A DNA stretch of 64,000 nt, from assembly GCA_963849205.1 (NCBI GenBank), contig CAWKGP010000005.1, positions 252,406 to 316,405 of the forward strand, in the 5' to 3' direction. This DNA is from an uncultured Acidobacteriota bacterium. GTDB lineage: Bacteria > Acidobacteriota > Blastocatellia > Pyrinomonadales > Pyrinomonadaceae. Each line of letters begins with the position of its first letter. Position 1 is the first letter of the stretch. This document shows, piece by piece, positions 5,664 to 58,917 of this stretch. Below the pieces are notes generated by a model. It made no database searches. It was not told where the DNA came from and was given only the letters and a program-made list of their open reading frames with translations. The translations under genes were made by a program, and so were the position numbers.

Positions 5664-6194
5664 TTATCTCGGCTCTTGCCCTTCAATAATCAGTTCATTC
5701 TTCACACTGAAAAGCCCCGGAACTCCGCGTGCGCGAATGTAGGCGAGCTGCGCATCGCCTTTATTCGCGACGACACCTTTGAGTGTTGCGTGTCCGCGAT
5801 TAACGATCAAATGAATCGGCGGTACAGACTGCGTCGCGTAGCGAAATAGCGGAGAGTTGAAGTTGTAGATCGCTCGGTACAAGGCCCGGCGTAGCCGATC
5901 GTCATTTGGAGAAAGCGGCAACACCTCGATCTGGTTATTCACTCGCGATACACCCTCGACGTCTTTCACCCGGCCCTCCGCGTCTGATTTCGTTGTATCT
6001 CTAACGACCTGACCACGCAGGACGACGGTGTTATCGGGCTGTATCTCAAACTCGAGCCAATCAAACACACCGTAGTAAGGCAGCATTCTGAGTTCGTGCC
6101 TGACTTCACGAACAAGCTTAGGATTAACCTGGCTGCGAGCCACAAGCGGCTGCCCCAAAACCGCCAATAGGACCAAAATCGGAAACACTCTCAT
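5664..6194 (-). CDS. Secreted BON-domain protein (two BON domains)
   Basis: Signal peptide MRVFPILVLLAVLGQPLVARS. GGAGG lies 6 nt upstream of ATG 6194, so the longer listed ORF start at 6224 is unlikely. BON-like segments are VVLRGQVVRD and ATLKGVVANKGDAQLA. Confidence 0.75.
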   Translation of the reverse strand: MRVFPILVLLAVLGQPLVARSQVNPKLVREVRHELRMLPYYGVFDWLEFEIQPDNTVVLRGQVVRDTTKSDAEGRVKDVEGVSRVNNQIEVLPLSPNDDRLRRALYRAIYNFNSPLFRYATQSVPPIHLIVNRGHATLKGVVANKGDAQLAYIRARGVPGLFSVKNELIIEGQEPR

Positions 6195-6203
6195 ACTACA
6201 CCT

Positions 6204-6286
6204 CCACAAACGCACAAAAAGCACAAGAAAGAAAACCTAAATCAGTCTCCTCCTTTTTTGTGCTTTTTGTGCTCTTTTGTGGCTAA
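6204..6286. repeat. Hairpin repeat, family B (CACAAAAAG units, end GTGGCTAA)
   Basis: ccacaaacgcacaaaaagcacaag ... ttgtgctttttgtgctcttttgtggctaa, between the pilin-like gene stop and the BON gene start. Confidence 0.8.
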
Positions 6287-6300
6287 CTTTTTGTGACTAA

Positions 6301-6786
6301 CTACTGGCCGATTGGTGGATCGGTGGCCGTAGCTTGTTGCGCCGGATTGACGTGAATGGTGTTTGAGTCAGAGTCGACGTAATAGAAATTCTTGCCAGTG
6401 GCGGAAACGCCTGTCGGTATCTGCGGATCGGCGGTGATCGTGTAGCCTGCCTGTGTGGTAGTTGACTTCGGAATTATCTTCATCGTGTAGACGTAGCCGT
6501 CCACGACTGGAGTGGCACCGTCGAACCGGCTGTCCAGCAGGTTCTCTTTCCGCATCTCTTCAAAGGTTCCAAACGAAGTGCGTTGATGGGCGTTGAAGTA
6601 GAGCATTTGTTGCTCGGCAATAGAGCGCAGGGTCTTAACCGCCGCCGCTTCGTTTGCGGCCCTGACGGCGGCGCGCCAGCCCGCGATTCCGACGCCGATC
6701 AGTATGCCTATGATGGCGATAACGATCATCAACTCGATCAGAGAAAAGCCCCGCTGGTTCTTTTTGGTTTTATTAAGGGGTTTCAT
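6301..6786 (-). CDS. Prepilin-type N-terminal cleavage/methylation domain protein (type IV pilin / pseudopilin-like)
   Basis: MKPLNKTKKNQRGFSLIELMIVIAIIGILIGVGI is the class III signal peptide plus hydrophobic helix. ATG 6786 is preceded by GAGGAG. The listed ORF extends to 6900, but that N-terminus is not pilin-like. Confidence 0.85.
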   Translation of the reverse strand: MKPLNKTKKNQRGFSLIELMIVIAIIGILIGVGIAGWRAAVRAANEAAAVKTLRSIAEQQMLYFNAHQRTSFGTFEEMRKENLLDSRFDGATPVVDGYVYTMKIIPKSTTTQAGYTITADPQIPTGVSATGKNFYYVDSDSNTIHVNPAQQATATDPPIGQ

Positions 6787-6965
6787 ATTCACTCTCCTCG
6801 GGCACTTACACGAAGCGATTAAATTTCCGTTCCGATTTCTGCTGCGCTTGCCCATCCTCCATACGGGCCTTAGTCTACTACAGGAGTATGCCAAGATCAC
6901 ATTGCACGGGCGGCCAACTTTTCCGTGCGGGGCGTGCTCTTAGCATGTAGAATGCAGGCCAATTC

Positions 6966-7949
6966 ATGCGGAACCTCGAACCAATCAGCAGTGGACAGAT
7001 AACCAGCGCCAGCGCCGTCGAACAGATCGAGCGGCTGCAGGGCGCTGTCGAAACTGTCATTAAAGGCAAGCCGGAGGCGATTCGGCTGGCCATTGTGACG
7101 CTGATTGCCGGTGGTCATTTGCTGGTCGAGGACGTTCCTGGTGTCGGCAAAACGACCCTGGCCCACGCGCTCGCGCGTGCACTCGACTGTAATTTCCAGC
7201 GGATCCAATTCACTTCCGACCTGCTGCCGTCAGACGTCATTGGTCTTTCCGTCTACAACCAGCATAGCGGTCTCTTTGAATGGAAGCCCGGACCTGTTTT
7301 TGCAAACGTGGTATTGGCTGACGAGATCAATCGTACCACTCCTAAAACTCAGTCAGCGTTGCTCGAAGCGATGGCTGAGCGGCATGTGACGGCTGAAGGT
7401 GTAACACACGATCTGCCGGCTCCGTTCATAGTGCTGGCGACCCAGAATCCCATCGAGCATCACGGCACTTATCCGTTGCCGGAGTCGCAACTCGATCGTT
7501 TCATGTTGCGGTTGCGGATCGGTTATCCCGCGCCGGTTGATGAACAGAGGATTCTGCGCGATCGCGAGTATTCGGATCCGCTCGACGAGCTTGTCCCGGT
7601 AATGACCGCTCCCGAAGTTGTCGAGCTGCAACAGGCAGTAATGTCCGTTGCGGTCGACGATGCACTTGTTCATTACCTGATGCGGATCGTTGCTGCGACG
7701 CGCAATTCAGAGATGCTGGACCTCGGCGTGAGTCCGAGAGGAACTTTGTCGCTGTTCCGTGCCGCACAGGCTATAGCGTTGGGAGAGGATCGAACGTACT
7801 GTATCCCCGACGACATCAAGCGACTGGTGGTGCCGGTGTTTGCACATCGAATTGTAGTCAGTTCGCGATTCTCATCGTCGCTCCGCCGCAGTGAAGAAGC
7901 CGAAGCCGTCCTCAACGAAATTCTAAAAACTGTCAGTGTCCCGCTGTGA
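6966..7949 (+). CDS. MoxR-family AAA+ ATPase
   Basis: Walker A GVPGVGKTTLAHALA, QFTSDLLPSDVIG, Walker B VVLADEINR, and sensor TQNPIEHHGTYPLPESQLDRF. Confidence 0.92.
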   Translation: MRNLEPISSGQITSASAVEQIERLQGAVETVIKGKPEAIRLAIVTLIAGGHLLVEDVPGVGKTTLAHALARALDCNFQRIQFTSDLLPSDVIGLSVYNQHSGLFEWKPGPVFANVVLADEINRTTPKTQSALLEAMAERHVTAEGVTHDLPAPFIVLATQNPIEHHGTYPLPESQLDRFMLRLRIGYPAPVDEQRILRDREYSDPLDELVPVMTAPEVVELQQAVMSVAVDDALVHYLMRIVAATRNSEMLDLGVSPRGTLSLFRAAQAIALGEDRTYCIPDDIKRLVVPVFAHRIVVSSRFSSSLRRSEEAEAVLNEILKTVSVPL

Positions 7950-9424: not shown

Positions 9425-11821
9425 ATGACTGAATCTTCTAAAGCCACATACTCATCGTCCACGATCTTTCTGATCGGTCTATGTTTCGTTCTATCCGGGG
9501 CGACGGGGCTTATTTATGAGGTGCTCTGGGTACGCATGCTGGGCCTTGTGTTTGGGGCCACGACGCTCGCGGTCAGCACTGTGCTTGCGGCATTTATGGG
9601 TGGGCTCGCACTTGGCAGTGCGTTGGCCGCAAGGCTTGCACAAAGGATCAGGAAACCGCTGAGTGTGTATGGGTTGATGGAAATTCTCATCGCCCTGTAT
9701 GCGCTGTTGGTCCCGTTGTTATTTCGCTGGATCGATCACGTGTACGCGTTGATCTGGCAACAACTTCAGCCCGGATACTTCACGTTTAGTCTGTGGCGTT
9801 TCTTTCTTTCAGGCGTCGTACTGCTTGTGCCCACGACGTTGATGGGTGCTACGTTGCCGGTACTCGCAGCAGCTCTCATTCGATCGTCACGGCGCGATTC
9901 AAACTCGGTAACGAGGCTTTATGCGTGCAATCTCGTGGGTGCAATTCTGGGTACGCTTGCGGCCGGGTTTGTGTTGCTGCCGTGGCTTGGTGTTCGAACT
10001 ACGATCGCAGTTGCCGCGGCGCTCAATATCATCGTGGGCGCGATTGCGATCTTTTTACAACGAAAAGCTGAGTCACATACTGAGGTTGCGGAGAAGATTG
10101 AGGTCGAAGAGTTGGTTGTGGCGGACGACAGTCGAGGATTCTGGTTCGTCGCCGCACTTGTTTCTGGTTTTGTCACTATCGGTACGCAGGTTTCATGGAC
10201 GCGCGTCCTCACCATGATCATCGGATCGAGTACTTACGCGTTCAGCATTGTTGTCGCATTGTTTTTGATTGGACTCGCCATCGGCGCGTGGATAGTTGCG
10301 CGCAAGGATCGATCGCATAGATTGCGTTCGACGATTCTGGTAGTCGAAGTGCTAACTGCGCTCAGTTTGCTCTTCAGCCTGTTTGTCCTCAACCAGATAC
10401 CGGCACTGTTGATTAATCTTGGTTTGCGTTTACAGGTGGCCTCATGGATTGGTCTGCTTGCTTTGCAGATCCTTTCTGCTACGTTGCTGATCCTTGTGCC
10501 TGCGGTGTTGATGGGGATGGTGATGCCGTTGGTGCTCATTTGGGCCAGTAGTGAAGGGAAGAAAGCCGTAGCGCGCGTAGGCCGAAGCTACGCGATCAAT
10601 ACCCTCGGCGCGATCGCGGGTGCGTTTCTCACCGGGTTTATTTTTATTCCGAAAGCAAGTACGAGATTCACATTGCTGTTTGCAGCGACGTGTTGTTTAG
10701 TCGTGGCAGGGCTCGCGTACCGTCCCACTACTGGCGACCCGGCCCTGAAACGCAGTCTTGCCATCGGGTTAAGTTTCGTATTCGTCATCGTACTCTTTGT
10801 TGTGGCGCCTCGGATGAATCTCGCCGACCTTTCCATCGGTGCTTATGACAGTCTCGTGCGCGTGATCGCACAAACGCGCGAGGGGGTGCAGGAAGGCGAC
10901 ACCACCGCTGGACCAAATATCCATGAGCTTTTGATGTATCAGGAAGGACCAACTGCGACCGTGTCTGTGCGTCGCGACGCGGATACCGTTTCAATGGCAA
11001 TCAATGGACGCACAAACGCGTCCGACAGTATCTATGACATGCCGACGCAGGTGATGCTCGGGCAGTTGCCGCTGCTGATCGCGCCGAAGATCGAAAACGG
11101 TTTGATAATCGGTTATGCGACCGGCGTGACGGTCGGCGCGATGTTGCAGTCGCCGATTCAGTCTGTAACGTGTGTAGAGCTCGAGCCGGGAACTGTTGCC
11201 GGATCTGAGTTCTTCACTCACATCAACAACCGGCCGCTCGATGATCCGCGCACGAACTTGATCATAGACGATGCGAGAACCTTTCTGCGTGTGACACCGA
11301 ATCGTTACGACATCATCGTGAGTGAGCCGAGTCACCCGTGGGTTCCCGGAGTCGCAAATTTGTTTACGCAGGAGTTCTTTGAATTGGGACGAGCGCGTTT
11401 GAACGACGATGGGATCTGGGTGCAGTGGGTGCAGATCTATCAACTCTCGACCGAGAGTTTGCGGTCAGTGTTGGCGACGTATCACAAAGTTTTTCAGCAC
11501 GTGCTGGTGTTTCGTGTCGGTGGTTTGAATAAGGGGAAGGATCTGTTGTTGATTGGAAGCAACCGGCCGCTGAATCTCGATCGGTTGGCCGAGCGATTTG
11601 CAGATCAGCGAATCTCGACTGAACTGGCGCGAGTTGATTTGAAATCGGAAGCCGATGTGAGAGGGTGGTTTGTTTGTGACGAGTCAAGACTTGGGCCAGC
11701 CGTAGCGGGCGCGAAGATCAATACCGACGACAACATGCACATCGAGATGACTGTGCCGCGCGAGGCGTTTCGACCGTTGATGCAGAGCAATGCGGAGTGG
11801 GTGCAGGCTCTCGCGAAGTAA
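9425..11821 (+). CDS. Fused polytopic membrane / spermidine-synthase-like (class I methyltransferase fold) protein
   Basis: About 14 predicted TM helices followed by a PABS-like domain (GLIIGYATGVTVGA, DIIVSEPSHPWVPGVANLFTQEFF). Confidence 0.8.
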   Translation: MTESSKATYSSSTIFLIGLCFVLSGATGLIYEVLWVRMLGLVFGATTLAVSTVLAAFMGGLALGSALAARLAQRIRKPLSVYGLMEILIALYALLVPLLFRWIDHVYALIWQQLQPGYFTFSLWRFFLSGVVLLVPTTLMGATLPVLAAALIRSSRRDSNSVTRLYACNLVGAILGTLAAGFVLLPWLGVRTTIAVAAALNIIVGAIAIFLQRKAESHTEVAEKIEVEELVVADDSRGFWFVAALVSGFVTIGTQVSWTRVLTMIIGSSTYAFSIVVALFLIGLAIGAWIVARKDRSHRLRSTILVVEVLTALSLLFSLFVLNQIPALLINLGLRLQVASWIGLLALQILSATLLILVPAVLMGMVMPLVLIWASSEGKKAVARVGRSYAINTLGAIAGAFLTGFIFIPKASTRFTLLFAATCCLVVAGLAYRPTTGDPALKRSLAIGLSFVFVIVLFVVAPRMNLADLSIGAYDSLVRVIAQTREGVQEGDTTAGPNIHELLMYQEGPTATVSVRRDADTVSMAINGRTNASDSIYDMPTQVMLGQLPLLIAPKIENGLIIGYATGVTVGAMLQSPIQSVTCVELEPGTVAGSEFFTHINNRPLDDPRTNLIIDDARTFLRVTPNRYDIIVSEPSHPWVPGVANLFTQEFFELGRARLNDDGIWVQWVQIYQLSTESLRSVLATYHKVFQHVLVFRVGGLNKGKDLLLIGSNRPLNLDRLAERFADQRISTELARVDLKSEADVRGWFVCDESRLGPAVAGAKINTDDNMHIEMTVPREAFRPLMQSNAEWVQALAK

Positions 11822-11831
11822 GCAAAGAATA

Positions 11832-11927
11832 TCTCCCGCAAAGGCGCCACGGCGCAACGAATGAATCAGCTGCTCTGACGTAACTCCTTCGTTGCGCCGT
11901 GGCGCCGTTGCGGGAGAAATCCTATCA
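11832..11927. repeat. Hairpin repeat related to family A (CGCAAAGGCGCC units)
   Basis: tctcccgcaaaggcgccacggcgcaacgaa ... ttcgttgcgccgtggcgccgttgcgggaga. It lies between convergent genes and overlaps the last codons of hemY. Confidence 0.85.
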
Positions 11928-13295
11928 ACGCCTCTGAGGCTGCTTCACCGCTACGAATACAATCGGGAATGCCCGCGCCGCGATAGGAGTTACCGGCGAG
12001 TGCCAGTCCGGGAAGTTCTGCGACAAGCCTTTCGATGTCGTTAACCCGATCGAGATGGCCGACTTCATATTGCGGCATCGATCGTTCCCACTTTGCCACT
12101 TCAATAAAACGAGGATCTTCGCGGATTTTTAATAATTCGCGCAGATCAGCTTCCACTCTCTTGGCAATTCCTGCTTCGTCGAGGGCAAAGATTTCCGGTT
12201 GCAACGCGCCACCCGCAAAGGCGCGAAGCAGGACGTGTTCATCCGGCGCTCGACGCGAAAACTTCACGCTGCTGAATGTGCAAGCAATCAAAGATCTCTT
12301 CTCGATGAATGGAACGACAAAGCCGAATCCGTTAAGTGGGTGAGCGATGGCTGAACGCCGGTAAGCGAAGTTGATTGTCGCTGTCGAAGCGTAATTGATC
12401 GCTTTCAGTTTCTGCGCGAGTTGACCATTGGTATCACTTAACAGCGACGCCGCGATGTGTGCGGGGACCGCAAGGCAAACCGCGTCCGTCTGAAGTTGCT
12501 CGCCGGTATGCATTGTGATCGTCCAGCCTTCGCTATCTCGTTTCAGTCTTGTCACACGCGTATTCAATCGAGTTTCGGCGTTGATCTCAGCGAGTGCGTC
12601 CACCAGCACTTGCATGCCGCGATCGAACGAGAGAAACAAACTGTAACGTGCGCCGCTCGTGCCGGTCTTTTGTGCGCGGCCCTGGCGCAACATCGCGAGG
12701 ATCAGACTCCGGTGCTTTTGCTCCATGTCGAGGAACCGCGGCAGGGTTGCGCGCAAGCTGAGCGTTTCGGGATCTGCAGTGTAAATGCCGCCGACCATCG
12801 GTTGGGCCATACGCGCGAGTGCTTCTTCTCCGAGTCTGCGCCGCACAAAGCTCGCCAGACTCTCATCGCCTGCGCCGTTTGTGCTCTTTCGCGGCAGAAA
12901 CAGATCAGCGGCCATACGCGCCTTGCCAGCGAGACTGAAGATGTCGCTCGTAATAAACGCCCACATGCGCGAGGGCGCCAGCAGTTGAAATCCTTCGGGC
13001 ACGGCGCGCAAGCGTCCATTGCGCACGATGAAACTGCGCCGGTACGTTTCGTTTGTCTCGATTATTTGTGAATCGAGGCCGAGACGTTTTGCGAGTGCGA
13101 GCGCTTCTGGTTTTTCAGAGATGAAAGAATCCGGGCCACGTTCGAGGAGGAAACCGTCGCGCTGCGTGGTTTGAATCGTCCCACCAAGCCTCGCGCTAGC
13201 TTCGAGCAGAATGACTTCTACTGACGGATTAATTTCCTGAACACGATGTGCCGCAGCCAGTCCGGTAATCCCACCACCAACTACGACTATCCTGT

Positions 13296-13299
<4 letters not shown>
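11866..13299 (-). CDS. hemY: Protoporphyrinogen/coproporphyrinogen III oxidase (HemY/CgoX type, FAD-dependent)
   Basis: N-terminal dinucleotide fold IVVVGGGITGLAAAH. Length and overall pattern match HemY. It is the last gene of a hemE-hemH-hemY arrangement joined by 4-nt overlaps. Confidence 0.85.
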
Positions 13300-14287
<988 letters not shown>

Positions 14288-15325: not shown

Positions 15326-15440
15326 GTAAAAGATTATACGGATATTTAGAAGATCAGCGCAGATCTGATTTATTGTAACGAATGACAGCGCCCTTGTAGA
15401 ATAACCCAGCATTTCTAGTTTCCTTCGAGGGTAAGCCTCC

Positions 15441-18400
15441 GTGCCCAACGTAAAACCCGCCCGCAAAGGCGTCTTCATCTCCTACGCACGCAGCGACGGC
15501 GAAGAGTTTGCCGATCGCCTGCGCCAGCGATTGCAGGCGGAAAATATCCCACTCTGGCAGGATCGCGTAGGCATGGAAGGTGGCCGCGACTGGTGGCTGC
15601 AAATCACCGAAGCCCTCGATCAAGTCGAGTTTATGGCACTGGTGATCACACCGAATGCTTTGAAGTCTGAGACGGTAAGGAAAGAATGGCGCTACGCTCG
15701 CCAGCAAGGTGTTTGCGTTTATCCCATCAAAGGCTTACCTGATCTCGACTTCGATAGTTTGCCACGCTGGATGCGGAGCGCGCATTTTTATGACTTAGAT
15801 CATGAGTGGCAAAAGTTCGTCAACGATCTCAACACCCGCTGTCAGACCAAGCGTGTCCCCTTCATGGTCGAAGATCTACCTGAAGGCTTCGTGCCACGTC
15901 CCGGTGAATTCGATCAGCTTCTGAACCTACTGATTGATGAGCGGCGAGCAGAACCAGTAGCGATCACCGCGGCACTGAGAGGCGCTGGCGGGTATGGCAA
16001 GACAACATTGGCTAGGGCGCTGTGTCATGACGAACGTATTCAGGAGGCATTCGACGACGGCATTCTCTGGATCACGCTTGGAGAAAATCCTGGCGACTTA
16101 ACAGGTCGAGTTGAAGATCTCATCGTTACACTCGGTGACGAGCGACCTGGATTTACAACACAGGATGCAGCGGTCAATCGCTTAAAAGAACTGTTGGCTG
16201 ATCGAGACATTCTGATCGTGATTGACGACGTTTGGGACCGGGCTCATCTCAATCCGTTCATACAGGGTGGCCCGCGTTGCGCTCGCCTGATCACAACACG
16301 GAACTTCGACACGCTGCCGGCTGGCACAGCAAAGGTGCAAGTCGATGCAATGCAGCAGGACGAAGCGACGATGCTGCTTACTGCTGGTTTGGATGAAACT
16401 TCACTTCAGAATGCAGGACTGACCCCGTGAGTTGAAAAAGCTTGCATCACGTTTGGGTGAGTGGCCGCTGTTACTTCGTTTAGTCAATAGTGCTCTACGC
16501 AATCGCATCGAAAATGACAAGCAATCGCCACGCGATGCAGTTACGTGGATCAACACAGCACTTATTAAACGCGGGCTGACTTATTTTGATGCCAGCAATT
16601 CCGAAGCGCGTAATGACGCAGTGGCGAGGACGATTGGTGTCAGTCTTGATCTGTTGAGCGTGAGAGACCGAGAACGTTACGGCGAGCTTGCGATCTTTCC
16701 CGAGGATGTTGTGATTCCCCTCTCTACGTTGGAAAAGCTGTGGGCCAAGACTGGCGGCCTGGATGAATTCGATGCCGAAGATTTATGCAGTCGATTGAAT
16801 CGTTTTTCTCTGTTGTGGAGTTACGACGCAAACCAGCGACGTATCCGCTTGCATGACGTGGTTCGAAATTTCTTAATTGAGCAACAACGAGGCAGGCTAC
16901 CGTCAATCCACGCACAACTTCTCGACGTGCATTTTCCAATAGCTTCATCCGGTTGGGCTGCAATGCCCGCAGACGAGCCGTATTTTTGGGATCATCTCGC
17001 GCATCATCTTGTCGAGGCCGGTCGCGGCAATGAGTTGGTCGCCACCGTCAAGGACTGGCGTTATCTGGTTTCTAAAACACTCATCCGCAAGTCGCTTGCG
17101 GTTGAAGCCGACTTGTTGACTGGTGAGAAGGTTGCAGCAAACGATGACGGACTGCAGTTACTACGGCGCAACTTCGTGAATTCAGGTCATCTCTTGAACC
17201 GATGCGAAAGCAGAGACGACGTCGAAATCACTTTGTTTACGCGCCTGCGACACCTGGATGATTTGAAGCCGCTCACGAGAACTCTCGAACAGCATCTGAA
17301 ACGTCCGTATATTCTACCGCTCCAAACACTGCCTGACTTACCCCATCCGGCGTTGGTGCGAACACTCAGCGGCCATGCCAGTACGGTACTGGGCTGTGCG
17401 GTGAGCGCAGATGGAGCGACGATCGTCTCGGCTTCTTATGATGGAACGCTAAAGATATGGGATAGGCGCAGTGGCGTGGAGCGCTTCACGCTAAGAGGTC
17501 ATTTGGCTCGGGTGCTGAGCTGCGCGGTGAGTGCGGATGGGGCGACGATTGTCTCGGCCTCGGATGATGGAACGCTGAAGGTGTGGGATGGACGCAGTGG
17601 AACAGAGCGCTGCACGCTGAGCGGCCATTTGGGTGGGGTGCAGGGCTGCGCGGTGAGCGCTGATGGAGCGACGATCGTGTCGGCTTCTTTTGATAAGACG
17701 CTGAAGGTGTGGGATGGGCACAGTGGAACAGAGCGCTTTACGCTGAGCGGCCATTCTGGTTGGGTAAATGGCTGTGCGGTGAGCGCGGATGGAGCGACGA
17801 TCGTGTCGGCTTCGGATGATGGGACGCTGAAGGTGTGGGATGGGCGCAGTGGAGGTAATCGCTTGACGCTTAGCCATTCGTTATCAGTGCGGGGCTGCGC
17901 GGTGAGCGCCGATGGGGCGACGATCGTGTCGGCTTCGGGGGATTCAACATTGAAGGTGTGGGATCGGTGCAGTGGAGTCGAGCGATTCACACTGAGGGGC
18001 CATGCGCGTGCAGTGCTGGGCTGCGCGTTGAGCGCGGATGGAGTAACGATCGTGTCGGCTTCGGATGATGGAACGCTGAAGGTGTGGGATGGACGCAGTG
18101 GAGCCGAGCGCTTCACGCTGAGTGGCCATGCTGGGGGCGTGGGTGGCTGCGCAGTAAGTGCGGATGGAGCAACGATTGCCTCGGCTTCGGGGGATAGTAC
18201 ATTGAAGGTGTGGGATGGGCGGAGTGGAGGGAACAGCTTTACGCTGAGCGGCCATTTGGGTGGGGCGCGTAACTGCGCGGTGAGCGCGGATGGAGCGACG
18301 GTCGTGTCGACTTCGGGGGATAGAACGCTGAAGGTGTGGGATGGGCGCAGTGGAGTGGAGCGCTTCACGCTAAGAGGTCATTTGGCTCGGGTGCTGAGCT

Positions 18401-19104
18401 GCGCGGTGAGTGCGGATGGGGCGACGATTGTCTCGGCCTCGGATGATGGAACGCTGAAGGTGTGGGATGGACGCAGTGGAACAGAGCGCTGCACGCTGAG
18501 CGGCCATTTGGGTGGGGTGCAGGGCTGCGCGGTGAGCGCTGATGGAGCGACGATCGTGTCGGCTTCTTTTGATAAGACGCTGAAGGTGTGGGATGGGCAC
18601 AGTGGAACAGAGCGCTTTACGCTGAGCGGCCATTCTGGTTGGGTAAATGGCTGTGCGGTGAGCGCGGATGGAGCGACGATCGTGTCGGCTTCGGATGATG
18701 GGACGCTGAAGGTGTGGGACGGGCGCAATGGCGCGGAACGCTTTACGCTGAGCGGCCAATCTGGTTGGGTAAAGGGCTGTGCGGTGAGTGCGGACGGAGC
18801 GATGATCGTCTCGGCTTCGTCTGATGGAACGCTTAAGGTGTGGGATGGGCGCAATGGCACGGAGCGCTTCACGCTGAGCAACCCAACGGGTTGGGTGCAG
18901 GGCTGCGCGGTGAGTGCGGATGGAGCGACGATTGTCTCGGCTTCGGATGACGGAACGCTGAAGGTGTGGGGCGGGCACACGGGCGAGAGCCTGTCGACGC
19001 TGTATGTCGATGGACCCCTAAATGGCTGTGCTTGCTCTCCCGATGGTGAAATAATCGCGGCAGCTGGTCCTCGCGGAATCTACTTCCTCCGCCTCGTGCG
19101 CTAA
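15441..19104 (+). CDS. TIR - NB-ARC (STAND NTPase) - 14x WD40 protein, split by a 1-nt frameshift into ORFs 15441..16430 and 16432..19104
   Basis: TIR: VFISYARSDGEEFADRL...ALKSETVRKEW. NB-ARC: P-loop GAGGYGKTTLA (15981-16013), Walker B ILIVIDDVWD, ARLITTRN, GEWPLLL, and MHD-like RLHDVV (16849-16857). These are followed by 14 42-aa WD40 units (GHxxxVxxCAVSADGATIVSASxDxTLKVWD). Confidence 0.85.
17350..19100 (+). repeat. In-frame tandem array of 14 x 126-bp WD40-coding units, including an exact 365-bp segmental duplication (17476-17840 = 18355-18719)
   Basis: GGCCAT/GGTCAT of the GH dipeptide recurs at 17371, 17497, 17623 and onward (period 126). The two listed blocks are identical by base-by-base reading, at an offset of 879 bp. 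Confidence 0.9.
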
Positions 19105-19390
19105 ATCGAAACAACCACGGATCAGGATCACGGACCGATCTGCGCAGATCGGTTCCCCAATCCGTAAAATCTGCGTCCGAACTTTCCCACCCGCCCACAC
19201 GTTCAACGCAACGGATCGCCCCCGAACGACACTAACTACCAATAACCGCTCTCAGATCTGTTTTCAGATCTTGGTGTAAAACGGGGTTAACGACTACAAT
19301 ACACCCCAAATACCGCCACGTCCGGCTGCCTTGTAGAAACTTGTCACAAGTCAGTAACTTGCGGTGTTTGCACTGTTGAGAGAGCGGTGA

Positions 19391-19966
19391 TTGATGAACG
19401 GACAAGCTAGAGCTTTGATCGAGTCCATGCCTAACGACATCGGGACTGAAGCGGTAGGTCCGCTCAGTTTCGACGAAGCGTTTACCCTCCATCACCGCGC
19501 CGTTTTTCGGACGGCTAGAGCTGTTGTTCGCGATTCGGCTATCGCCGAAGACGTGACGCAGGAAGTGTTTCTAAGACTTTATCGCAATCTCAACGCTACG
19601 CCAGGCGAGGAATTATTGCGGGCGTGGCTTTTGCGCGTGACTCTTAACGTCGCGCGAAACACCTTGCGGGGTCAAAGCCGCTCGATGGTTCGCGACAACG
19701 AGTATCACAAGACCACGGCAGACGGCTTTTTTGCCGACGCACCGGAAGAAGACTACGAACGCCGCATGGCTATCGAGGAAGCTCGCCGCGCGTTGGAGAA
19801 AATCAAAGAGCCGATGAGAAGTTGCCTGCTTTTGAAACAGCAGGGACTCTCCTACCGCGAAATCGCCACCACGCTGTCTCTAAAAGAGACAAACATTGGC
19901 AGCCTGGTAGCCCGCGGTCGCAAAGAGTTTGCGAGGGTTTACGGTAAGATCGGAGGCAAACGATGA
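19391..19966 (+). CDS. ECF-type RNA polymerase sigma-70 family factor
   Basis: Region 2 is AEDVTQEVFLRLYRN. Region 4 HTH is LSYREIATTLSLKETNIGSLVARGRKEF. Confidence 0.9.
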   Translation: MMNGQARALIESMPNDIGTEAVGPLSFDEAFTLHHRAVFRTARAVVRDSAIAEDVTQEVFLRLYRNLNATPGEELLRAWLLRVTLNVARNTLRGQSRSMVRDNEYHKTTADGFFADAPEEDYERRMAIEEARRALEKIKEPMRSCLLLKQQGLSYREIATTLSLKETNIGSLVARGRKEFARVYGKIGGKR

Positions 19967-20844
19967 CACGGTGTTTGGATGAGGTAAAGCTGCAAAGCTA
20001 TTTCGACGGTGAACTTCCCATCGACATGATGGAAAGCGTCACGTCGCATCTGGCTTCATGCGTAACTTGTGCGGCTGCTGCGCGCGAACTGGAAGAGGAA
20101 TCGGCATTCGTAATGTCGGCTTTGGCCGCGGAATTTGAGACGAGTGTACCAACGGAACGTCTGCGCGAGCGCATCGATGCGGCAGTTTTGGGCGATCGGT
20201 TAGCAGTTGCCGAAGCAACACAGAAAACCTCCGGTGTCGCAGCATTCTTCTCCGGTCTACTTAACTTCGGAAAACAGCGAACTCTCGGTTATGCGAGTTT
20301 GGCAGTCGTAATGGCGTTTGCCGCGATTTTTGCAGTGGTGAACCTGAAGAGCACACCTGATACTACCGCTGTTAACAACACGCAACCACAGCAAGCTGTA
20401 GCAGTCGTAAGTCAACCTGCTGAAACAGGTAGCATCGCTCCCAGTACCGTGTCGACTAAGCCGACTGAGCTTCCCGCGCCGCAAAAAGCTACCAGTGGAA
20501 ATGGAACCAAAGGAAAGTATCAGCAGGTTAAATATACGCAGGCCGCAGCACCGACGCCGGCACCGGTGAAATTGCTTCCTGGTGAACGTTCTTACCTGCA
20601 AACCATCGCCAAACTCGATTCCACCATTAAATCAAACCAAAAGGGTATGAGACCTTCTCTCGAGGTTGAATACCAGCGCAATCTCGCAGTAGTCGATCGC
20701 GCCATTGCTGCTACTCGTAGCGCGGCAAAGAGCAATCCAAATGATCCCGACGCGGCCGATTTCATGTTTGCTGCCTACCAAAGCAAAGTTGATCTCCTCA
20801 ATACCATTGCCGACGCACGACTCGGCGGAGGTCGCGGACACTGA
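19963..20844 (+). CDS. Anti-sigma factor (putative zinc-finger, single TM)
   Basis: ATGA overlap with the sigma gene. zf-HC2-like HLASCVTCAAAARE, then the TM segment LGYASLAVVMAFAAIFAVV. Confidence 0.75.
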   Translation: MTRCLDEVKLQSYFDGELPIDMMESVTSHLASCVTCAAAARELEEESAFVMSALAAEFETSVPTERLRERIDAAVLGDRLAVAEATQKTSGVAAFFSGLLNFGKQRTLGYASLAVVMAFAAIFAVVNLKSTPDTTAVNNTQPQQAVAVVSQPAETGSIAPSTVSTKPTELPAPQKATSGNGTKGKYQQVKYTQAAAPTPAPVKLLPGERSYLQTIAKLDSTIKSNQKGMRPSLEVEYQRNLAVVDRAIAATRSAAKSNPNDPDAADFMFAAYQSKVDLLNTIADARLGGGRGH

Positions 20845-51995: not shown

Positions 51996-52080
51996 ATTGC
52001 CGATTGCCGATTTCCAATTGCCGATTTTCTGAGCTGACAGCCGCTTATAAATCGGCAATTGGAAATTGGCAATCGGCAAT
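51996..52080. repeat. Hairpin repeat, family F (ATTGCCG units)
   Basis: attgccgattgccgatttccaattgccgattt ... aaatcggcaattggaaattggcaatcggcaat, with one mismatch. It starts 5 nt after the gvpA stop. Confidence 0.9.
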
Positions 52081-52095
52081 CATAAACAAAGGGCT

Positions 52096-54258
52096 ATGGG
52101 AGAGGTTCCCACAGAACTAGGTTATCGCAACGCCCCATCAATCTCGGATTCTGATCGGGCAAGCCCGCGCCTGCGGCAATTTGACGTCTTTATCGAGACG
52201 ACGACGCAGATGCTGGCGACGCCCAAGCTGCACGAGCGTCTGCTTCTCGCGCTCGAAGCTATCGCCACCAACTTCGGTTACCGGCAGGCAGCGATCGCCA
52301 TCATCAATGAACGTGACGCTGAATTGCGTATGCGTGCCGCAATCGGTTTCGACGGCGATACGCGCGTCGAGATGCCGCTCGACTCAAGCGCAGCGTGTGT
52401 CCGCGTAATCCACGATGCGCAACCGCTGTGGGTTTCAATCGAGGATGACGAGTCGTCGCGCAGTCTCTTCGCAAACATGCAGTGGCAGTCCGATGTCCTT
52501 GCCATACCGCTCTTTGGCATTTCGGAAATCGCTTCCAAGTCCGGAGAGTTGAGATCCTCAAGCCAGTACTGGACCTTTGAACCTGGCGCGCGGTTGGGTG
52601 TGCTGTACATCGGCGTTAACCAGGATGCCGCCGATTCCGAATCAGTAACACTCATCAAGCGTTTCGCCGAGCGCATTGGCATTGTTGCCTCTCTGGCAAC
52701 ACATCAGGAACGACTCGTCAGCACTGTTACCAAACTCCAGCGCGAACGACAGTGGATTGAGTCGATCATGAAGTCGGTCGCGGATCCGATCGTCCTTACG
52801 GATCTCGACAACGAAATACTTCTGCAAAACCGCCGCGCTGAAGAACTGTTCAGCGGTTCTGCCAACGCAGGCGAAGGAAAACGGCGCGCGTTGAAGATGA
52901 ACGACCTGCTGTTTTCTGCGTACCTCTCGAGCGCCACGGTTTCGTCGTCGGAAGTCATACAGCGAGACATCACCCTGGTCGATCCAATTGAAGGATCTGA
53001 CATTCACTTCGAAGTCATCTCAACACCTGCCGCGAATGCGCGCGGCGAACCACTCGGCCTTGTTTCGATCTTTCGCGACGTTACTGATTTGCGTGAAGCC
53101 AACGAGGAGCTGGCGCGTAACTTCGTCAAACTACAACAGGCTGAAGCAGAGTCGCGTCGCGAGCGCGATCGTCTCGACTTGATCATTGAGAACGTCGGTC
53201 ATCCGATTGTGGTTTGTGATTCGGCGGGAAATTTCATCCTCTTCAACCGGCGCGCGGAGTTGTTGTTTCAGGAGAACGCATCGTTCAAGTCATCAGCCTC
53301 TGCGGCAGTGCGCACGAATGCAGTCAAACTCACTTCGTTTATTTCCACACTTGCATCAGCGTCGGAGACGGGTCGCCAGGCAGAAATCGAGCTGATCGAT
53401 CCGGAAGATATTCGCTCATTGCCGATGGAGATAACGGCTCGTGAAGTTCTTGACGCGACTGGTCAGGTGACCGCCGTCGTCTCGATTCTTCACGACTTGA
53501 CTGAGATTCGCGAACTCGAACGCCGGCGAGTCGAACAGCAGTTATTTGAATCAGAAAAACTTGCGGCGGTGGGACGTCTCGCAGCATCAATCGCGCATGA
53601 AGTGAACAACCCGCTTGAAGCGATCAAGAACGCGCTCTACTTGATGCAATCAAGCGGCGACGGTAAAAACTCGCGCTTTCTGGAGATCGCCAGAAAAGAG
53701 ACCGAGAGAGTTTCACACATCATTCGCCAAATGCTTGGTTTTGCGCGCCGGCCGGGTGAAGTCGATTGGGTCGAGATAAACCAGTTGCTCGAAGAAACGC
53801 TCGTGTTGATGGAAAAGAAAATGCGCCAGTTGCGGATTCGCATCACGCGCGAATTCGACGAGCAACTGCCGCCTATCAGAGCTCGTGCCGATCAATTGCG
53901 GCAGGTTTTTCTCAACCTGATTATCAACGCGCAGCAGGCAATCGAGGGCGACGGTGAGATCGTGATTTCCACCTCGCGCTACGAGCAGGCGTTGCAACCA
54001 TCGATTGTTGTTCAACTGAGCGATAGTGGCATCGGTATCGCAGAAGACGATCTCGCGCGCATCTTCGATCCGTTCTTTTCAACCGGAAAGAAAGGCACGG
54101 GGTTGGGATTGTGGGTAACACAAGACATCGTCAGACAGCACGGTGGCCGCATCGAAGTGAGTAGTGAAGTTGGTCGTGGAACCGTTTTCAGCATTGTGCT
54201 TCAGATTGAATCGCCCATCCTTGAAGAACGGATAAGCGAATCTAAGGTGGCGACATAA
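52096..54258 (+). CDS. Cytoplasmic GAF-PAS-PAS sensor histidine kinase
   Basis: H-box AASIAHEVNNPLEAI, N-box FLNLIINAQQAI, G-boxes DSGIGI and GTGLGLWV. ATG 52096 is preferred because the listed start 52066 lies in the hairpin. Confidence 0.85.
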   Translation: MGEVPTELGYRNAPSISDSDRASPRLRQFDVFIETTTQMLATPKLHERLLLALEAIATNFGYRQAAIAIINERDAELRMRAAIGFDGDTRVEMPLDSSAACVRVIHDAQPLWVSIEDDESSRSLFANMQWQSDVLAIPLFGISEIASKSGELRSSSQYWTFEPGARLGVLYIGVNQDAADSESVTLIKRFAERIGIVASLATHQERLVSTVTKLQRERQWIESIMKSVADPIVLTDLDNEILLQNRRAEELFSGSANAGEGKRRALKMNDLLFSAYLSSATVSSSEVIQRDITLVDPIEGSDIHFEVISTPAANARGEPLGLVSIFRDVTDLREANEELARNFVKLQQAEAESRRERDRLDLIIENVGHPIVVCDSAGNFILFNRRAELLFQENASFKSSASAAVRTNAVKLTSFISTLASASETGRQAEIELIDPEDIRSLPMEITAREVLDATGQVTAVVSILHDLTEIRELERRRVEQQLFESEKLAAVGRLAASIAHEVNNPLEAIKNALYLMQSSGDGKNSRFLEIARKETERVSHIIRQMLGFARRPGEVDWVEINQLLEETLVLMEKKMRQLRIRITREFDEQLPPIRARADQLRQVFLNLIINAQQAIEGDGEIVISTSRYEQALQPSIVVQLSDSGIGIAEDDLARIFDPFFSTGKKGTGLGLWVTQDIVRQHGGRIEVSSEVGRGTVFSIVLQIESPILEERISESKVAT

Positions 54259-55922
54259 TGAGTCAATCATTCGATCAATCAGGAAATGATGCTCCCATGG
54301 ACGAGCCCGGGACTTTTGTTCCGCTTTTCCAGGAACCGAGACTGCTTGTCGTGGACGACGAAGAGAGTCTGCGTATCACTACTGCTGCGATCTTTGAGAA
54401 TGAAGGCTACATTGTCGACACTGCCTCGAGCGGTGACGAAGCGATTGAGTTGCTCAATAAGAAAGACTACGACCTCGTGCTTACTGACCTTCACATGGAA
54501 GGAGGCGACGGTCTTTCAGTCCTCAACAGCATCCGGCGCCAGGCTCCACTCACGATTTCAGTTGTGCTGACAGGTTTTGCGTCAGTCGAATCTGCGATCG
54601 CTGCGTTGCAGGAAGGTGCATACGACTATCTCGTGAAGCCCTGCGACATCGAAAGCATGAAGCATACGATTCGCAGAGGCGTCGAACACCGGCGACTAAT
54701 GCTGGCGGAGCAGAAAGCACGCGCGGATCTGCGACAGTTGAATGCGGATTTGGAACAAAGGATTGAAGAGCGCACTGCGGAACTCACACGCTTGAATGCG
54801 GAGCTTGCGGACGCAAACCGCGCAAAAGACGTCTTCCTCGCGACGCTCTCTCACGAGTTGCGAACCCCTCTGACGCCTGTGGTCGGCTGGATAAAACTCC
54901 TGCGCAGCGGAACACTCGATGAGAAGAGCGTGTTACAGGCACTCGATGCGATCGAGCGTAACGCCTGGCTGCAATCAAGGTTGATCGACGATCTGCTCGA
55001 CACGTCTCGCATCGCCACTGGAAAGCTTCACTTCGAACCAAAGGCAATTGATTTCAATTCGGCTGTGAAAGCTGCAGTTGATACTGTGCGTACCTCGGCC
55101 GCCGCGCGAAACATCGAGTTGAACGTATCGTTGTGGCCGGCAAGTTTGATAGTGATGGGCGAACCGGTCCGGCTGCAGCAGATAGCCTGGAACCTCATTT
55201 CAAATGCGATCAAGTTCACTGATCCTGGTGGCAAGGTCAGCATTACCACCCGACTCGAGGGCGCGCAGGCAGAACTCGAGGTGATCGATACGGGTGTCGG
55301 AATTGAACCGGAGTTTCTGCCGCACGTGTTCGATCGTTTTCGTCAGGCAGACGGCTCGACGTCAAGACGGCATGGAGGTTTGGGGCTCGGGCTGGCGATT
55401 GCCGATGCGCTCGCGAAGCTGCACAGCGGACGACTGCAAGCGCAGTCTGACGGAGTCGGGTCTGGAGCAACCTTCATTTTCAAACTCGACCTAGCGCCGA
55501 CCGGTAAAGTTGCAACAGAAACGGTGGACAATAAGCGTCATTCGCTACAGGGACTCGACGTTCTAATCGTCGAAGATTCACCGGATACACTAACGCTGCT
55601 GAGTACGATCTTCCGGCGTGAAGGTGCGAATGTAACGACCGCAGCCTCAGCCGGCGAAGCACTTACGCGTGCTGTCGATAAGCGCCCGCACATCATCGTC
55701 TCGGATATCGGTATGCCGGAGGTTGACGGCTATCAACTCCTCGAACAACTTCGTATCCTTCCCGGTCTCGCCGACGTCCCAGCGATCGCCATCTCAGGCT
55801 ATGCGAGCGAAGAAGACCGCGAGCGCGCCCTCGCCGCCGGTTACCTCGCCCTCGTCCCCAAACCGATCGACGTCGAAGCCCTCTTCGCCCTCATCCACGA
55901 CCTTAAAGCGCCGGCTGTTTGA
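54258..55922 (+). CDS. Hybrid receiver - histidine kinase - receiver protein
   Basis: REC1 LLVVDDEESL...LVLTDLHMEGGDG; H-box LATLSHELRTPLTPV; HATPase DTGVGIEPEF and GGLGLGLAIA; REC2 VLIVEDSPD...IIVSDIGMPEVDG. Start overlaps the upstream stop (TAATG). Confidence 0.9.
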   Translation: MSQSFDQSGNDAPMDEPGTFVPLFQEPRLLVVDDEESLRITTAAIFENEGYIVDTASSGDEAIELLNKKDYDLVLTDLHMEGGDGLSVLNSIRRQAPLTISVVLTGFASVESAIAALQEGAYDYLVKPCDIESMKHTIRRGVEHRRLMLAEQKARADLRQLNADLEQRIEERTAELTRLNAELADANRAKDVFLATLSHELRTPLTPVVGWIKLLRSGTLDEKSVLQALDAIERNAWLQSRLIDDLLDTSRIATGKLHFEPKAIDFNSAVKAAVDTVRTSAAARNIELNVSLWPASLIVMGEPVRLQQIAWNLISNAIKFTDPGGKVSITTRLEGAQAELEVIDTGVGIEPEFLPHVFDRFRQADGSTSRRHGGLGLGLAIADALAKLHSGRLQAQSDGVGSGATFIFKLDLAPTGKVATETVDNKRHSLQGLDVLIVEDSPDTLTLLSTIFRREGANVTTAASAGEALTRAVDKRPHIIVSDIGMPEVDGYQLLEQLRILPGLADVPAIAISGYASEEDRERALAAGYLALVPKPIDVEALFALIHDLKAPAV

Positions 55923-55926
55923 TCCC

Positions 55927-55950
55927 GAATCCGTGTTCATCCGTGGCTAA
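55927..55950. repeat. Family-E half element (right-arm type only)
   Basis: gaatccgtgttcatccgtggctaa. I found no matching left arm upstream. Confidence 0.6.
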
Positions 55951-55969
55951 ATACCGCTCTGTATTACAG

Positions 55970-55997
55970 TTGACAAAATCGCAATTGTAACTATAAT
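55970..55997 (+). promoter_or_regulatory. Consensus sigma-70 promoter upstream of the Rrf2 gene
   Basis: TTGACA (55970-55975), 16-nt spacer, TATAAT (55992-55997), 43 nt before ATG 56040. Confidence 0.55.
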
Positions 55998-56005
55998 GGT
56001 TACAA
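55985..56005. promoter_or_regulatory. Palindromic candidate operator overlapping the -10 box
   Basis: TTGTAAC-tataatg-GTTACAA (7-nt arms, 7-nt spacer) is centred on the -10 hexamer. This would fit Rrf2 autoregulation. Confidence 0.4.
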
Positions 56006-56039
56006 AAACGGCGGCCCGAGTTCCCCGAATAGATTTGAT

Positions 56040-56588
56040 ATGTCGACAAACAGCAGGTTTGCGGTGGCGGTTCATGTTTTGAGTTTGATGGCCTGGTCAG
56101 GCGAAGAACCCCTTAAATCAGAACAGGTTGCAGAAAGCGTCAACACAAATCCGGTCGTCATCCGGCGCATTTTGAAGGAATTGGCCGAAGCGGGCTTGGT
56201 TGTGTCTCAAACTGGTTCGCTCGGCGGTTCGAGGTTGGCAACTGACCCCGCCAAAACGACCTTGTTGGACGTGTACCAGGCACTCGAATACGGAGGTGTC
56301 TTTTCGTTGCACAGGCAACCTCCCAGCCGAGATTGTCCCGTTGGCGTGAATATCGAGACCGTTCTCGGAGATGTATTGTTGGAAGTTGATTCTGCGGTTG
56401 AGAGAGTGTTGCAAAACATAACCATTCACGATGTCGTACGCCGATTGAAACCCTGCAGCGGCGCGACGGCATCGAAGACGTTAGTAGAGAGGAATGGAAG
56501 GAAGAAGCACTACGACCAGAAGCAGATAAATTTGCCGCCATTGCGAGCAAAGAATCGGGGTAACGGGTCCTCGGAATTGCGTAAATAA
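56040..56588 (+). CDS. Rrf2-family transcriptional regulator (with C-terminal extension)
   Basis: [19 protein letters not shown]...[41 protein letters not shown] (winged HTH). Confidence 0.85.
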
Positions 56589-56610
56589 ACCGCGAGAAAG
56601 GAATATCAAT

Positions 56611-58317
<1,707 letters not shown>

Positions 58318-58350
58318 CTTTAAAGATTAGGAATCTAGGAGCGACTAATA

Positions 58351-58689
58351 ATGAGTGAACATGTGAAGGAAGTGAGCGATAGCTCGTTTGAGAAAGACGT
58401 ACTGACATCCGGCAAGCCGGTGCTGGTTGATTTCTGGGCGGAATGGTGTGCCCCTTGTCGTATGCTGGCGCCGACTGTTGCGGCTGTTGCGGAACACTAT
58501 GGCGACAACGCGAGCGTGGTGAAATTGAATGTGGACGACAACCCTTCAACTGCACAACGTTACGGCATCAAAGGCATTCCCACTCTGATTCTTTTCCGCG
58601 ACGGCAAGGAAGTCGAACGCGTGGTTGGTGCGACCAGTAAAGAATCGATCACGAGAATGATCGAGAAGTACGTGGCCATCAGAGCTTAA
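58351..58689 (+). CDS. trxA: Thioredoxin
   Basis: VLVDFWAEWCAPCRMLAP and GIKGIPTLILF. Confidence 0.95.
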   Translation: MSEHVKEVSDSSFEKDVLTSGKPVLVDFWAEWCAPCRMLAPTVAAVAEHYGDNASVVKLNVDDNPSTAQRYGIKGIPTLILFRDGKEVERVVGATSKESITRMIEKYVAIRA

Positions 58690-58713
58690 GAGTTCAGATT
58701 AGTGATTTAGAGG

Positions 58714-58747
58714 AGGCCGGATCCATCGGGTCCGGCCTTGTTGTTTG
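58714..58747 (+). terminator. Intrinsic terminator after trxA
   Basis: aggccgga-tccatcggg-tccggcct followed by tgttgtttgt. Confidence 0.55.
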
Positions 58748-58880
58748 TCAGATGGCTTAGCCCAAACATCAAAATCCCGCCCACGGCAGTGGGCGGGATT
58801 TGTGCAAGGCTGCATTGACGGCCGATCCCTCCTAGTTGCCACGGAGCTAAATTCTTTCAATTCAACCCGCGAGCGAGTAA

Positions 58881-58906: not shown

Positions 58907-58917
58907 AATGAAGCGGC

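Follow-up and report, generated by a model that had tools for sequence, protein, structure and literature searches.

Several described systems lie close to the gene reported here. Bacterial proteins in which a TIR domain is fused to an AP-ATPase domain were discussed by Kaur et al. (2020), and Hu et al. (2017) described highly repetitive WD40 proteins of prokaryotes in which the hotspot sites vary. Dyrka et al. (2020) reported WD and TPR repeats of high internal conservation in the NLRs of bacteria and fungi alike and suggested a similar regime of diversification for both; a survey in Nature (2026), in the part of it available, records Apaf-1 orthologues in bacteria whose sensors are beta-propellers, the family chosen there for experiments being a different one, Avs7. 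Our subject is a TIR–NB-ARC–WD40 receptor gene at positions 15441-19104 of a 64-kb window, by which we mean the whole stretch of DNA analysed (64,000 nucleotides of contig CAWKGP010000005.1, from an uncultured member of the Pyrinomonadaceae, Acidobacteriota). An earlier note on this DNA held that TIR-STAND proteins with WD40 sensors had been noted but lacked experimental characterization. The latter part stands, in that no experimental test of the TIR–NB-ARC–WD40 architecture in bacteria was found in the literature searched; the former made the architecture appear less explored than it is, for within the parts of the record available it is already catalogued (Hu et al. 2017; Dyrka et al. 2020; Kaur et al. 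2020; Nature 2026) as an experimentally unexplored class.

The best match in both sequence and fold is to Apaf-1 and Dark, with which the protein shares an NB-ARC module composed of a nucleotide-binding domain (NBD), HD1, WHD and HD2, followed by two WD40 propellers; the Apaf-1 structures 3sfz and 3j2t are fold matches over ~950 columns. There are also clear differences: the effector is a TIR domain here and a CARD there, the repeats here are near-identical, the host is bacterial, and identity of the window protein to Apaf-1 is only ~19-23%. The propellers of Apaf-1 have 7+8 blades, whereas those of the present protein are predicted to have 7+7.

Plant TIR-NLRs (RPP1, ROQ1) likewise combine a TIR domain with an NB-ARC that carries P-loop, Walker B, GxP and MHD-type motifs, and are among the fold matches (7dfv, 7crc, 7jlv). 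By expectation they share, in addition, the logic of a TIR NADase (NAD+-cleaving enzyme) that is activated by oligomerization. Their sensor, in contrast, comprises leucine-rich repeats and a C-JID, where the present protein has WD40 propellers; HD2 is present here, as in Apaf-1. To our knowledge there is no EDS1-type downstream pathway in bacteria.

In the fungal NACHT-WD40 NLRs (HET-E/HET-D, HNWD) the 42-aa WD40 units of a protein are likewise highly conserved and yet hypervariable at positions of the binding face, with signs that repeats have been reshuffled, mirrored here by a perfect 365-bp duplicate; Dyrka et al. (2020) drew this parallel explicitly for bacterial NLRs. The fungal proteins differ in having NACHT rather than NB-ARC and a HET effector rather than TIR; the synonymous divergence (dS) between units is ~0.5 here. 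The prokaryotic highly repetitive WD40 proteins (Hu et al. 2017; structure 2ymu) are alike in repeat identity of at least 0.7, in hotspot variation and in repeat organization (14 units, two propellers here), but that class is defined by its repeats alone, whereas here the TIR–NB-ARC context and the genomic history are resolved as well. Finally, the bacterial antiviral STANDs of demonstrated function (Avs1-7, bNACHT, CARD-NLR-like) share the tripartite logic of effector, STAND and repeats in a single-gene system, but sense by TPR-like repeats in place of WD40.

TIR–NB-ARC–WD40 proteins form a meeting point of Apaf-1, the plant TIR-NLRs and the fungal WD40 NLRs. The locus adds a case to this field and leaves the picture of the field unchanged. 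It is nonetheless a well-defined example – with insertion bounds, an intact orthologue (P0001), predicted 7+7 propellers, mapped candidate contacts, and catalytic and switch residues that can be mutated – and could be used to test whether oligomerization-activated TIR NADases and propeller sensors already operate in unicellular soil bacteria.

One receptor gene in two reading frames

Three parts are encoded by the single gene of this locus: a TIR domain at the N-terminus, then a complete NB-ARC/Apaf-1-type STAND ATPase and finally 14 WD40 blades. Its open reading frames (ORFs) and the residues of most interest are arranged as follows.

15441..16430, + strand: ORF1, 329 aa, GTG start; TIR and the nucleotide-binding domain of NB-ARC; stop codon TGA at 16428-16430
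Motifs of ORF1: TIR at about residues 10-140; P-loop G181-T189; Walker B D262-D263; TTR 285-287
15684..15686, + strand: codon of Glu82, candidate catalytic Glu of the TIR NADase site, in SETVRKEW on the helix 77-88 that follows strand 64-69
16423..16427, + strand: frameshift window, the sole stretch open in both frames, with the run CCCC at 16423-16426
16432..19104, + strand: ORF2, 890 aa; HD1/ARC1 (GEWPLLL), winged helix with LHD, helical domain HD2, then 14 WD40 blades

The two ORFs adjoin on the + strand, with a difference of +1 between their frames; the TTG start assigned to ORF2 is merely mechanical. Three-frame translation shows that the upstream frame stops at TGA 16428-16430 and that the downstream frame is open only from 16423, so the change of frame must fall within 16423-16427. 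Deletion of one C from the CCCC run restores an ORF of 1220 aa, reading ...NAGLTRELKKLASRLGEWPLLL, and the protein so repaired is colinear with intact single-ORF homologues. Both the NB-ARC profile match and the alignment to Apaf-1 continue across the repaired junction.

Evidence for the identity of the domains came from profile searches. Against Pfam, ORF1 matches TIR_2 over residues 11-97 (E 1e-18) and, for the first two thirds of the profile, NB-ARC (E 8e-17), and ORF2 matches WD40 in 13 stretches (E 1.5e-122) together with a closing blade of the TEP1-C type. The TIR_2 match (E 7e-19, residues 11-97) has a score of 69 bits, above its cut-off of 28. On the repaired protein the NB-ARC match reaches 65.7 bits (cut-off 23.5) and covers residues 158-355 (model positions 6-208), and thus the junction, with weak Dark_WHD and APAF1_C signals C-terminal of it. 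The NACHT profile falls below its cut-off on the same protein (15.2 bits against 26.7, E 0.02), which places the receptor outside the NACHT-type NLRs. The NB-ARC profile is accompanied by every motif of the switch: the P-loop GAGGYGKTTLA (residues 181-191), the Walker B segment ILIVIDDVWD (257-266, with IDDVW), TTR (285-287), the GxP motif (GEWP, within GEWPLLL of ORF2) and, in the winged helix, the MHD-type LHD at 16849-16857.

A homologue search with the repaired N-terminal 645 aa as query returned >1360 proteins at E<1e-10, from sources named, among others, as Pyrinomonadaceae, Blastocatellia and Ktedonobacteraceae. None of the best 120 falls below 57% identity to the query, and in nearly all of them a single ORF encodes TIR_2, NB-ARC and WD40 together; homologues with a single ORF number more than 100. 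The closest, P0001, aligns with 100% of the query at 83% identity and reads straight through the junction region. Across an alignment of 49 sequences E82, the P-loop residues G183/G184/G186/K187/T188, the Walker B pair D262/D263 and T285/T286/R287 are invariant, H471 and D472 of the LHD are near-invariant, and the window copy retains all of them. E82, which we take to be the catalytic glutamate of the TIR domain, is placed by the model at the start of its helix and aligns with a Glu of SPARTA TIR-APAZ chains. The TIR domain as a whole resembles TIR-SAVED, SPARTA TIR-APAZ, AbTIR and SARM1, all of them weakly and the first two best.

The earlier note had taken the two ORFs for one split gene carrying TIR, NB-ARC and WD40 domains. 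The repaired 1220-aa frame, the NB-ARC and Apaf-1 alignments that cross the junction and the single-ORF homologues bear out the first point, and Pfam matches above their cut-offs the second; each motif that it quoted lies where it had been placed, including E82 at 15684-15686 and LHD at 16849-16857.

Predicted fold

An AlphaFold2 model of residues 1-645 has a predicted local distance difference test score (pLDDT) of 85.5 and a predicted template-modelling score (pTM) of 0.73. Foldseek, one of two checks that the earlier note had named for the repaired protein, gives as its best match in the PDB the ADP-bound, closed form of Apaf-1, 1z6t (E 6e-18, TM 0.63, 508 columns); full-length Apaf-1, 3sfz, matches at E 1.5e-16, and Dark, CED-4 and the plant receptors RPP1, ROQ1, NRC and ZAR1 are among the further matches. 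The predicted model has, in short, an NBD-HD1-WHD-HD2 fold like that of Apaf-1. Sequence comparison with the PDB by phmmer agrees, with Apaf-1 found at E 2e-16 over NBD to HD2 and the plant RPW8-domain NLR 8zf0 at E 4e-18.

The model of ORF2 (pLDDT 83.4) superposes on full-length Apaf-1 and on the apoptosome over ~950 columns, with query TM-scores (TMq) of 0.56-0.69, and matches the highly repetitive double propeller 2ymu of Nostoc at 49% identity and E 1e-49. Inside the array its confidence is low in one linker only, that joining units 7 and 8 (ORF2 residues 599-613), a position that in the model fits two seven-bladed propellers. The 14 units, this break in the model and the matches to Apaf-1 and 2ymu together point to two consecutive propellers C-terminal to HD2, much as the earlier note had supposed in counting 14 blades as enough for a pair of seven-bladed propellers.

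The WD40 array

The array and its longest internal repeat are laid out as follows.

17362..18240, + strand: WD40 units 1-7, predicted first seven-bladed propeller
18241..19101, + strand: WD40 units 8-14, predicted second seven-bladed propeller
17476..17840, + strand: perfect 365-bp direct repeat, copy 1, in units 2-4
18355..18719, + strand: perfect 365-bp direct repeat, copy 2, in units 9-11, at an offset of 879 bp, equal to 7 units

Thirteen near-identical units of 42 aa (one of 41 aa) and one divergent closing unit make up the 14 blades. The closing blade, unit 14, ends ...GIYFLRLVR, and this tail is conserved family-wide. Tandem Repeats Finder (TRF) reports a 126-bp period in 12.6 copies. 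Mean identity between units is 79% for DNA and 75% for protein (0.751, pairwise, over 13 units); the latter value satisfies the cut-off of at least 0.7 used for highly repetitive WD40 proteins by Hu et al. (2017), whose counting rule is slightly different from the one used here.

Variation between the units is far from evenly spread. It is concentrated at unit positions 6-8, 10, 26, 28 and 39, where identity is 0.25 as against 0.85 elsewhere; within the protein it is highest at positions 8, 10 and 26, with 7 and 28 also variable, and entropy peaks at positions 7, 8, 10, 26 and 28 within the proteins of 24 family members too. Contact positions were assigned by the sequence rule of Wu et al. (2012), under which positions 8, 10 and 26 are R1-2, R1 and D-1 and so predicted contact sites on the top face. 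In WD40 complexes, ligand contacts on the top face fall most often on these three residues (Wu et al. 2012).

The perfect 365-bp repeat stands apart from the other unit pairs, which are ~79% identical, and this contrast in sequence indicates very recent intragenic conversion or duplication. Most units, on the other hand, are not very young, given a dS between them of ~0.5.

Family members with only 2-10 WD units exist, and most come from short-read assemblies, which can collapse such repeats; the long-read relative L086 spans ~14 units. Because of the possibility of collapse, variation in repeat number was set aside as evidence. Three relatives, P0017 (L085), P0021 and P0015, which lie on long contigs of 81 kb to 1.27 Mb, have just 2-3 WD40 units. 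Two or three units are too few for a propeller of their own, and such proteins are either products of assembly collapse or real short forms that would need to oligomerize to close a propeller. Antisense ORFs of 200-289 aa within the array (17499-18980, minus strand) were considered and dismissed as by-products of a GC-rich (0.62), GC-skewed (+0.37) and stop-poor repeat; they are not genes.

An insertion between hemE and an ECF sigma factor gene

The receptor gene lies between two sets of housekeeping genes, and the following features define its borders.

15330..19200, strand not assigned: inserted cassette, approximate extent; the sequence outside it aligns with empty junctions
19134..19153, + strand: 20-nt palindrome ACCGATCTGCGCAGATCGGT, 30 nt past the stop codon, its outer stem kept in L001

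Upstream are hemE, hemH and hemY, in divergent orientation; downstream are the genes for an extracytoplasmic function (ECF) sigma factor, an anti-sigma factor and a DUF4097 protein. The metagenome-assembled genome L001, a member of the Pyrinomonadaceae whose HemE is 96% identical, has the same order: hemY-hemH-hemE, the divergent receptor, ECF sigma, anti-sigma and DUF4097. Species-representative genomes were scanned with the HemE of the window, and the neighbouring genes mapped by tblastn. The receptor occupies the junction in four genomes only: that of the window, L001, L002 (HemE 93%), in which the N-terminus of the receptor falls at a contig end, and L086 (HemE 88%). Sixteen genomes of Pyrinomonadaceae/Blastocatellia with HemE at 76-84% have an empty site, hemE and the ECF sigma gene being adjacent and divergent at a distance of 250-500 bp. 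Alignment with these empty sites accounts for ~50-70 bp beside hemE and for the sequence from ~19200 beside the ECF gene; all that lies between is insert.

This patchy presence marks the gene as accessory and not housekeeping. On the sequence comparison it was acquired once, in a sub-clade of the Pyrinomonadaceae, and has no partner gene. A transposase, an integrase, a tRNA and a paralogue were sought in the 64-kb window and none was found; PADLOC, run on the 36 other window proteins, detected no system near the gene, only isolated generic matches far off. Four distant family members are each alone among unrelated metabolic genes, and across five genomic contexts there is no conserved neighbour gene.

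In these respects the earlier note read the locus well: it had set the gene between a hemEHY operon and an ECF sigma operon, as the divergent hem genes and the downstream ECF sigma gene confirm, and had described it as a lone gene with no partners and no mobile-element scars, a description with which the housekeeping flanks, the solitary family members elsewhere and the PADLOC result agree. It had also asked for a check of presence/absence polymorphism at the junction, and had named strict conservation as a syntenic housekeeping gene as a refutation. The comparison gave presence/absence, the gene being present in four genomes with HemE at 88% or more and absent from 16 at 84% or less. Synteny and purifying selection are seen, as a qualification, among the genomes that carry it.

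The junction is one that tolerates insertions in general. Other inserts of 2.5-4 kb occur in L005 (6600-9650), L014, L023 (7000-9700) and L027 (7800-9560), and in L002 a FAD/BBE oxidase gene (629-2296) lies between the receptor and hemE. The idea that the junction is a defence hotspot was rejected, since the inserts in L005, L014, L023 and L027 encode HEAT-repeat, DUF4097, S41 peptidase and unknown secreted proteins and no defence genes.

The palindrome at 19134-19153 may, from its sequence and position, be a hairpin at the end of the transcript. A 16-nt palindromic motif, GATCWGCGCAGATCKG, occurs free of mismatches only twice in 64 kb (0.19 occurrences expected by chance), at 15352-15367 and 19135-19152, with a weaker copy at 63769-63792. 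Both exact copies lie just inside the ends of the cassette. The downstream one is kept as a hairpin in L001; the upstream one is absent from L001, L002 and L086, for which reason the pair was rejected as the terminal repeats of a mobile cassette. Scans for promoters and terminators gave matches no commoner than in shuffled sequence.

Selection and divergence

Comparison with the L001 orthologue allowed us to ask how the gene has been maintained. The N-terminal module (15441-17361 of the window against 4459-6393 of L001) has a ratio of nonsynonymous to synonymous substitution (dN/dS, omega) of 0.08, and four segments of it have omega values of 0.045-0.13 that are alike on the two sides of the frameshift. 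From this the gene was functional for essentially all of its history, and is by this measure under strong purifying selection within the clade that has it.

In the same comparison the receptor has a dS of 1.24 where eight flanking genes have 0.37-0.63, a difference of ~2-3x, and its DNA identity is 77.5% as against 88-91% in the flanks. Alleles of the receptor appear, then, to be more divergent than the genomic background, which fits alleles that are long-lived or exchanged.

Two further features of the flank were seen. At the DNA level the interval 19195-20290, which takes in the ECF sigma gene (19391-19966) and the first part of the gene for the anti-sigma factor, shares 93-100% identity with L001 7700-8800; it begins right at the right-hand edge of the cassette, and the dS of the ECF gene is 0.038, compared with 0.37-0.63 in the eight surrounding genes. 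The pattern suggests a recent recombination tract or an unusual constraint at the nucleotide level. Next to it, in the middle of the anti-sigma gene (19963-20844), positions 20291-20563 are hypervariable, with 43-69% identity to L001 between flanks of 94-100%; they encode the Pro/Thr/Ala-rich linker of the anti-sigma factor.

Proposed mechanism and its alternatives

We consider it probable – at roughly 0.6 – that the gene encodes a single-polypeptide, Apaf-1-like STAND receptor in which a ligand bound by the propellers leads to ATP-dependent oligomerization and so to TIR NADase activity, the window copy being a recent pseudogene or a mis-sequenced gene. The resting protein would be ADP-bound and closed. 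A protein ligand, most plausibly derived from a phage or other invader, would bind the variable top faces of the propellers and release autoinhibition; nucleotide exchange and oligomerization into a ring would follow, and the TIR domains thus juxtaposed would cleave NAD+, with growth arrest or death of the infected cell as the outcome. The gene would have entered the hemE|ECF intergenic region once, in a sub-clade of the Pyrinomonadaceae, and been kept since, its repeats diversifying at contact positions. What the analysis itself establishes is the identity of the domains, the conservation of their motifs, the likeness in fold, the polymorphism of the insertion, the selection on the gene and the pattern in which the repeats vary; we infer the ligand, the oligomerization, the NADase activity and the immune role alike from Apaf-1 and the plant TIR-NLR resistosomes.

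Several observations weigh against this proposal. The window copy does not form a single uninterrupted frame: it is frameshifted between NBD and HD1 and, as sequenced, cannot make the full receptor. PADLOC models match the TIR domain only (the TIR-NLR model at E 0.0016, over positions 4-75 of 824), and no PADLOC model of Avs, bNACHT or another STAND system matches the receptor at full length. The gene is outside any defence island, with no known defence system or mobile element nearby, and the usual support from guilt by association is therefore missing. Lastly, the dN/dS between units, which is 1.18 over the seven variable codons but 0.19 over the rest, is descriptive rather than an independent test, since the seven were picked for their variation.

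A central issue is the state of the window copy, which on its sequence is either a very recently inactivated gene or an intact gene mis-sequenced. Were the frameshift real, this would be a recently pseudogenized receptor without current function and the two ORFs its relics, an outcome to which we give somewhat short of an even chance. The frame change is, after all, present in the sequence, and the ~36 other large ORFs of the window are long and uninterrupted, so that the assembly is not generally error-prone; immune genes that carry costs of autoactivity are, moreover, frequently lost. Against a dead gene, the lesion is a single one, the copy keeps all residues that are invariant in the family, omega is 0.05-0.13 on both sides of the break, and a 4-base homopolymer is a plausible site of sequencing error. 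Artefacts of this kind do occur in assemblies of this group: in L086, a metagenome contig of long-read style, hemY is split in two and the receptor is spread over at least three ORFs, broken at A/T homopolymers (6093-7483 and 10001-13699). The breaks in L086 are probably sequencing errors, and counsel caution in the reading of frameshifts in this group. Look-ups of the exact proteins of ORF1 and the ECF sigma factor gave no match in the collections searched, and metagenomes scanned for the junction, in its CCC as well as its CCCC form, gave none either; the closest relative that these collections offered is 83% identical, and they hold no sequence of the same species.

A second issue is what generates and maintains the diversity of the array. 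Tentatively, and as a possibility only, the TIR–NB-ARC–WD40 family of Pyrinomonadaceae and Ktedonobacteraceae may be a bacterial counterpart of the fungal HET-E-type receptors, with the ligand specificity of an Apaf-1-like double propeller altered by conversion and reshuffling of units and diversification at hotspots, with divergent alleles that outlast the genome around them, and with a TIR NADase as output. The suggestion stems from the receptor dS, ~2-3x that of the eight flanking genes, and from the perfect 365-bp conversion tract. If true, it would offer a natural system in which to learn how recognition diversity arises and is maintained in a single-gene bacterial NLR.

It is unlikely, in our judgement, that the receptor is not antiviral at all and senses instead an endogenous or competitor cue – in kin or non-self recognition, response to a toxin or stress dormancy – in the manner of the fungal HET-E/HET-D WD40 NLRs or of Apaf-1. 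Highly repetitive WD40 units with hotspot variability are found in the fungal NACHT-WD incompatibility genes, the gene has no defence-island context, and its inheritance at one chromosomal site within its clade has been stable and vertical, all of which would suit such a role. Yet the bacterial STANDs with a demonstrated function in the literature searched all sense phage or gene transfer agent (GTA) proteins, and by analogy we keep phage proteins as the default ligand.

Slightly less probable still is an output by signalling, in which the TIR domain would make a cyclic ADP-ribose-type or other nucleotide for an unlinked effector, as in Thoeris or the plant TIR-NLR/EDS1 pathway. The literature describes both modes, bacterial and plant TIRs being able to produce signalling nucleotides, and the NCBIfam and PADLOC matches of the TIR domain include Thoeris ThsB/ThcB-type models. 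Set against this are the lack of a neighbour conserved in the five genomic contexts, the lack of any SLOG, SIR2, Macro or ThsA-like match reported in the window, and the best TIR matches, which are the NAD+-depleting TIR-SAVED and SPARTA TIR-APAZ. With no conserved neighbour and with NAD+-depleting enzymes as the nearest TIR matches, depletion of NAD+ to the point of arrest or death seems more likely than signalling to a second protein.

That the split is itself functional, through a receptor of two chains (TIR-NBD and HD1-WHD-HD2-WD40) or through programmed +1 frameshifting at ACC CCG UGA, is highly improbable: coupled reinitiation is formally possible, TGA 16428-16430 being one base from TTG 16432, but the break cuts the nucleotide-binding pocket between the NBD and the GxP helix, re-pairing of the tRNA from CCG to CGU looks poor from the sequence, and there is no conserved stimulator element. 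Homologues, moreover, have one uninterrupted ORF whose sequence at the corresponding point differs and is non-slippery; for this reason, and because the site in the window is not slippery either, programmed frameshifting was rejected.

Other features of the window

One of the 36 other large ORFs, not adjoining the receptor, matches the PADLOC models of the Pycsar cyclase (PycC) at up to E 4e-31, and is probably a generic class III nucleotidyl cyclase. The C-terminal half of the ORF at 56611-58314 matches MzaA in PADLOC at E 8e-69; this is probably a generic ATPase match and not a defence gene. The region ~52000-60300 holds an apparent gas-vesicle gene cluster, and the large ORFs of the window include three proteins of the GvpL/GvpF family, an ArsA-type ATPase and an AAA_3 ATPase.

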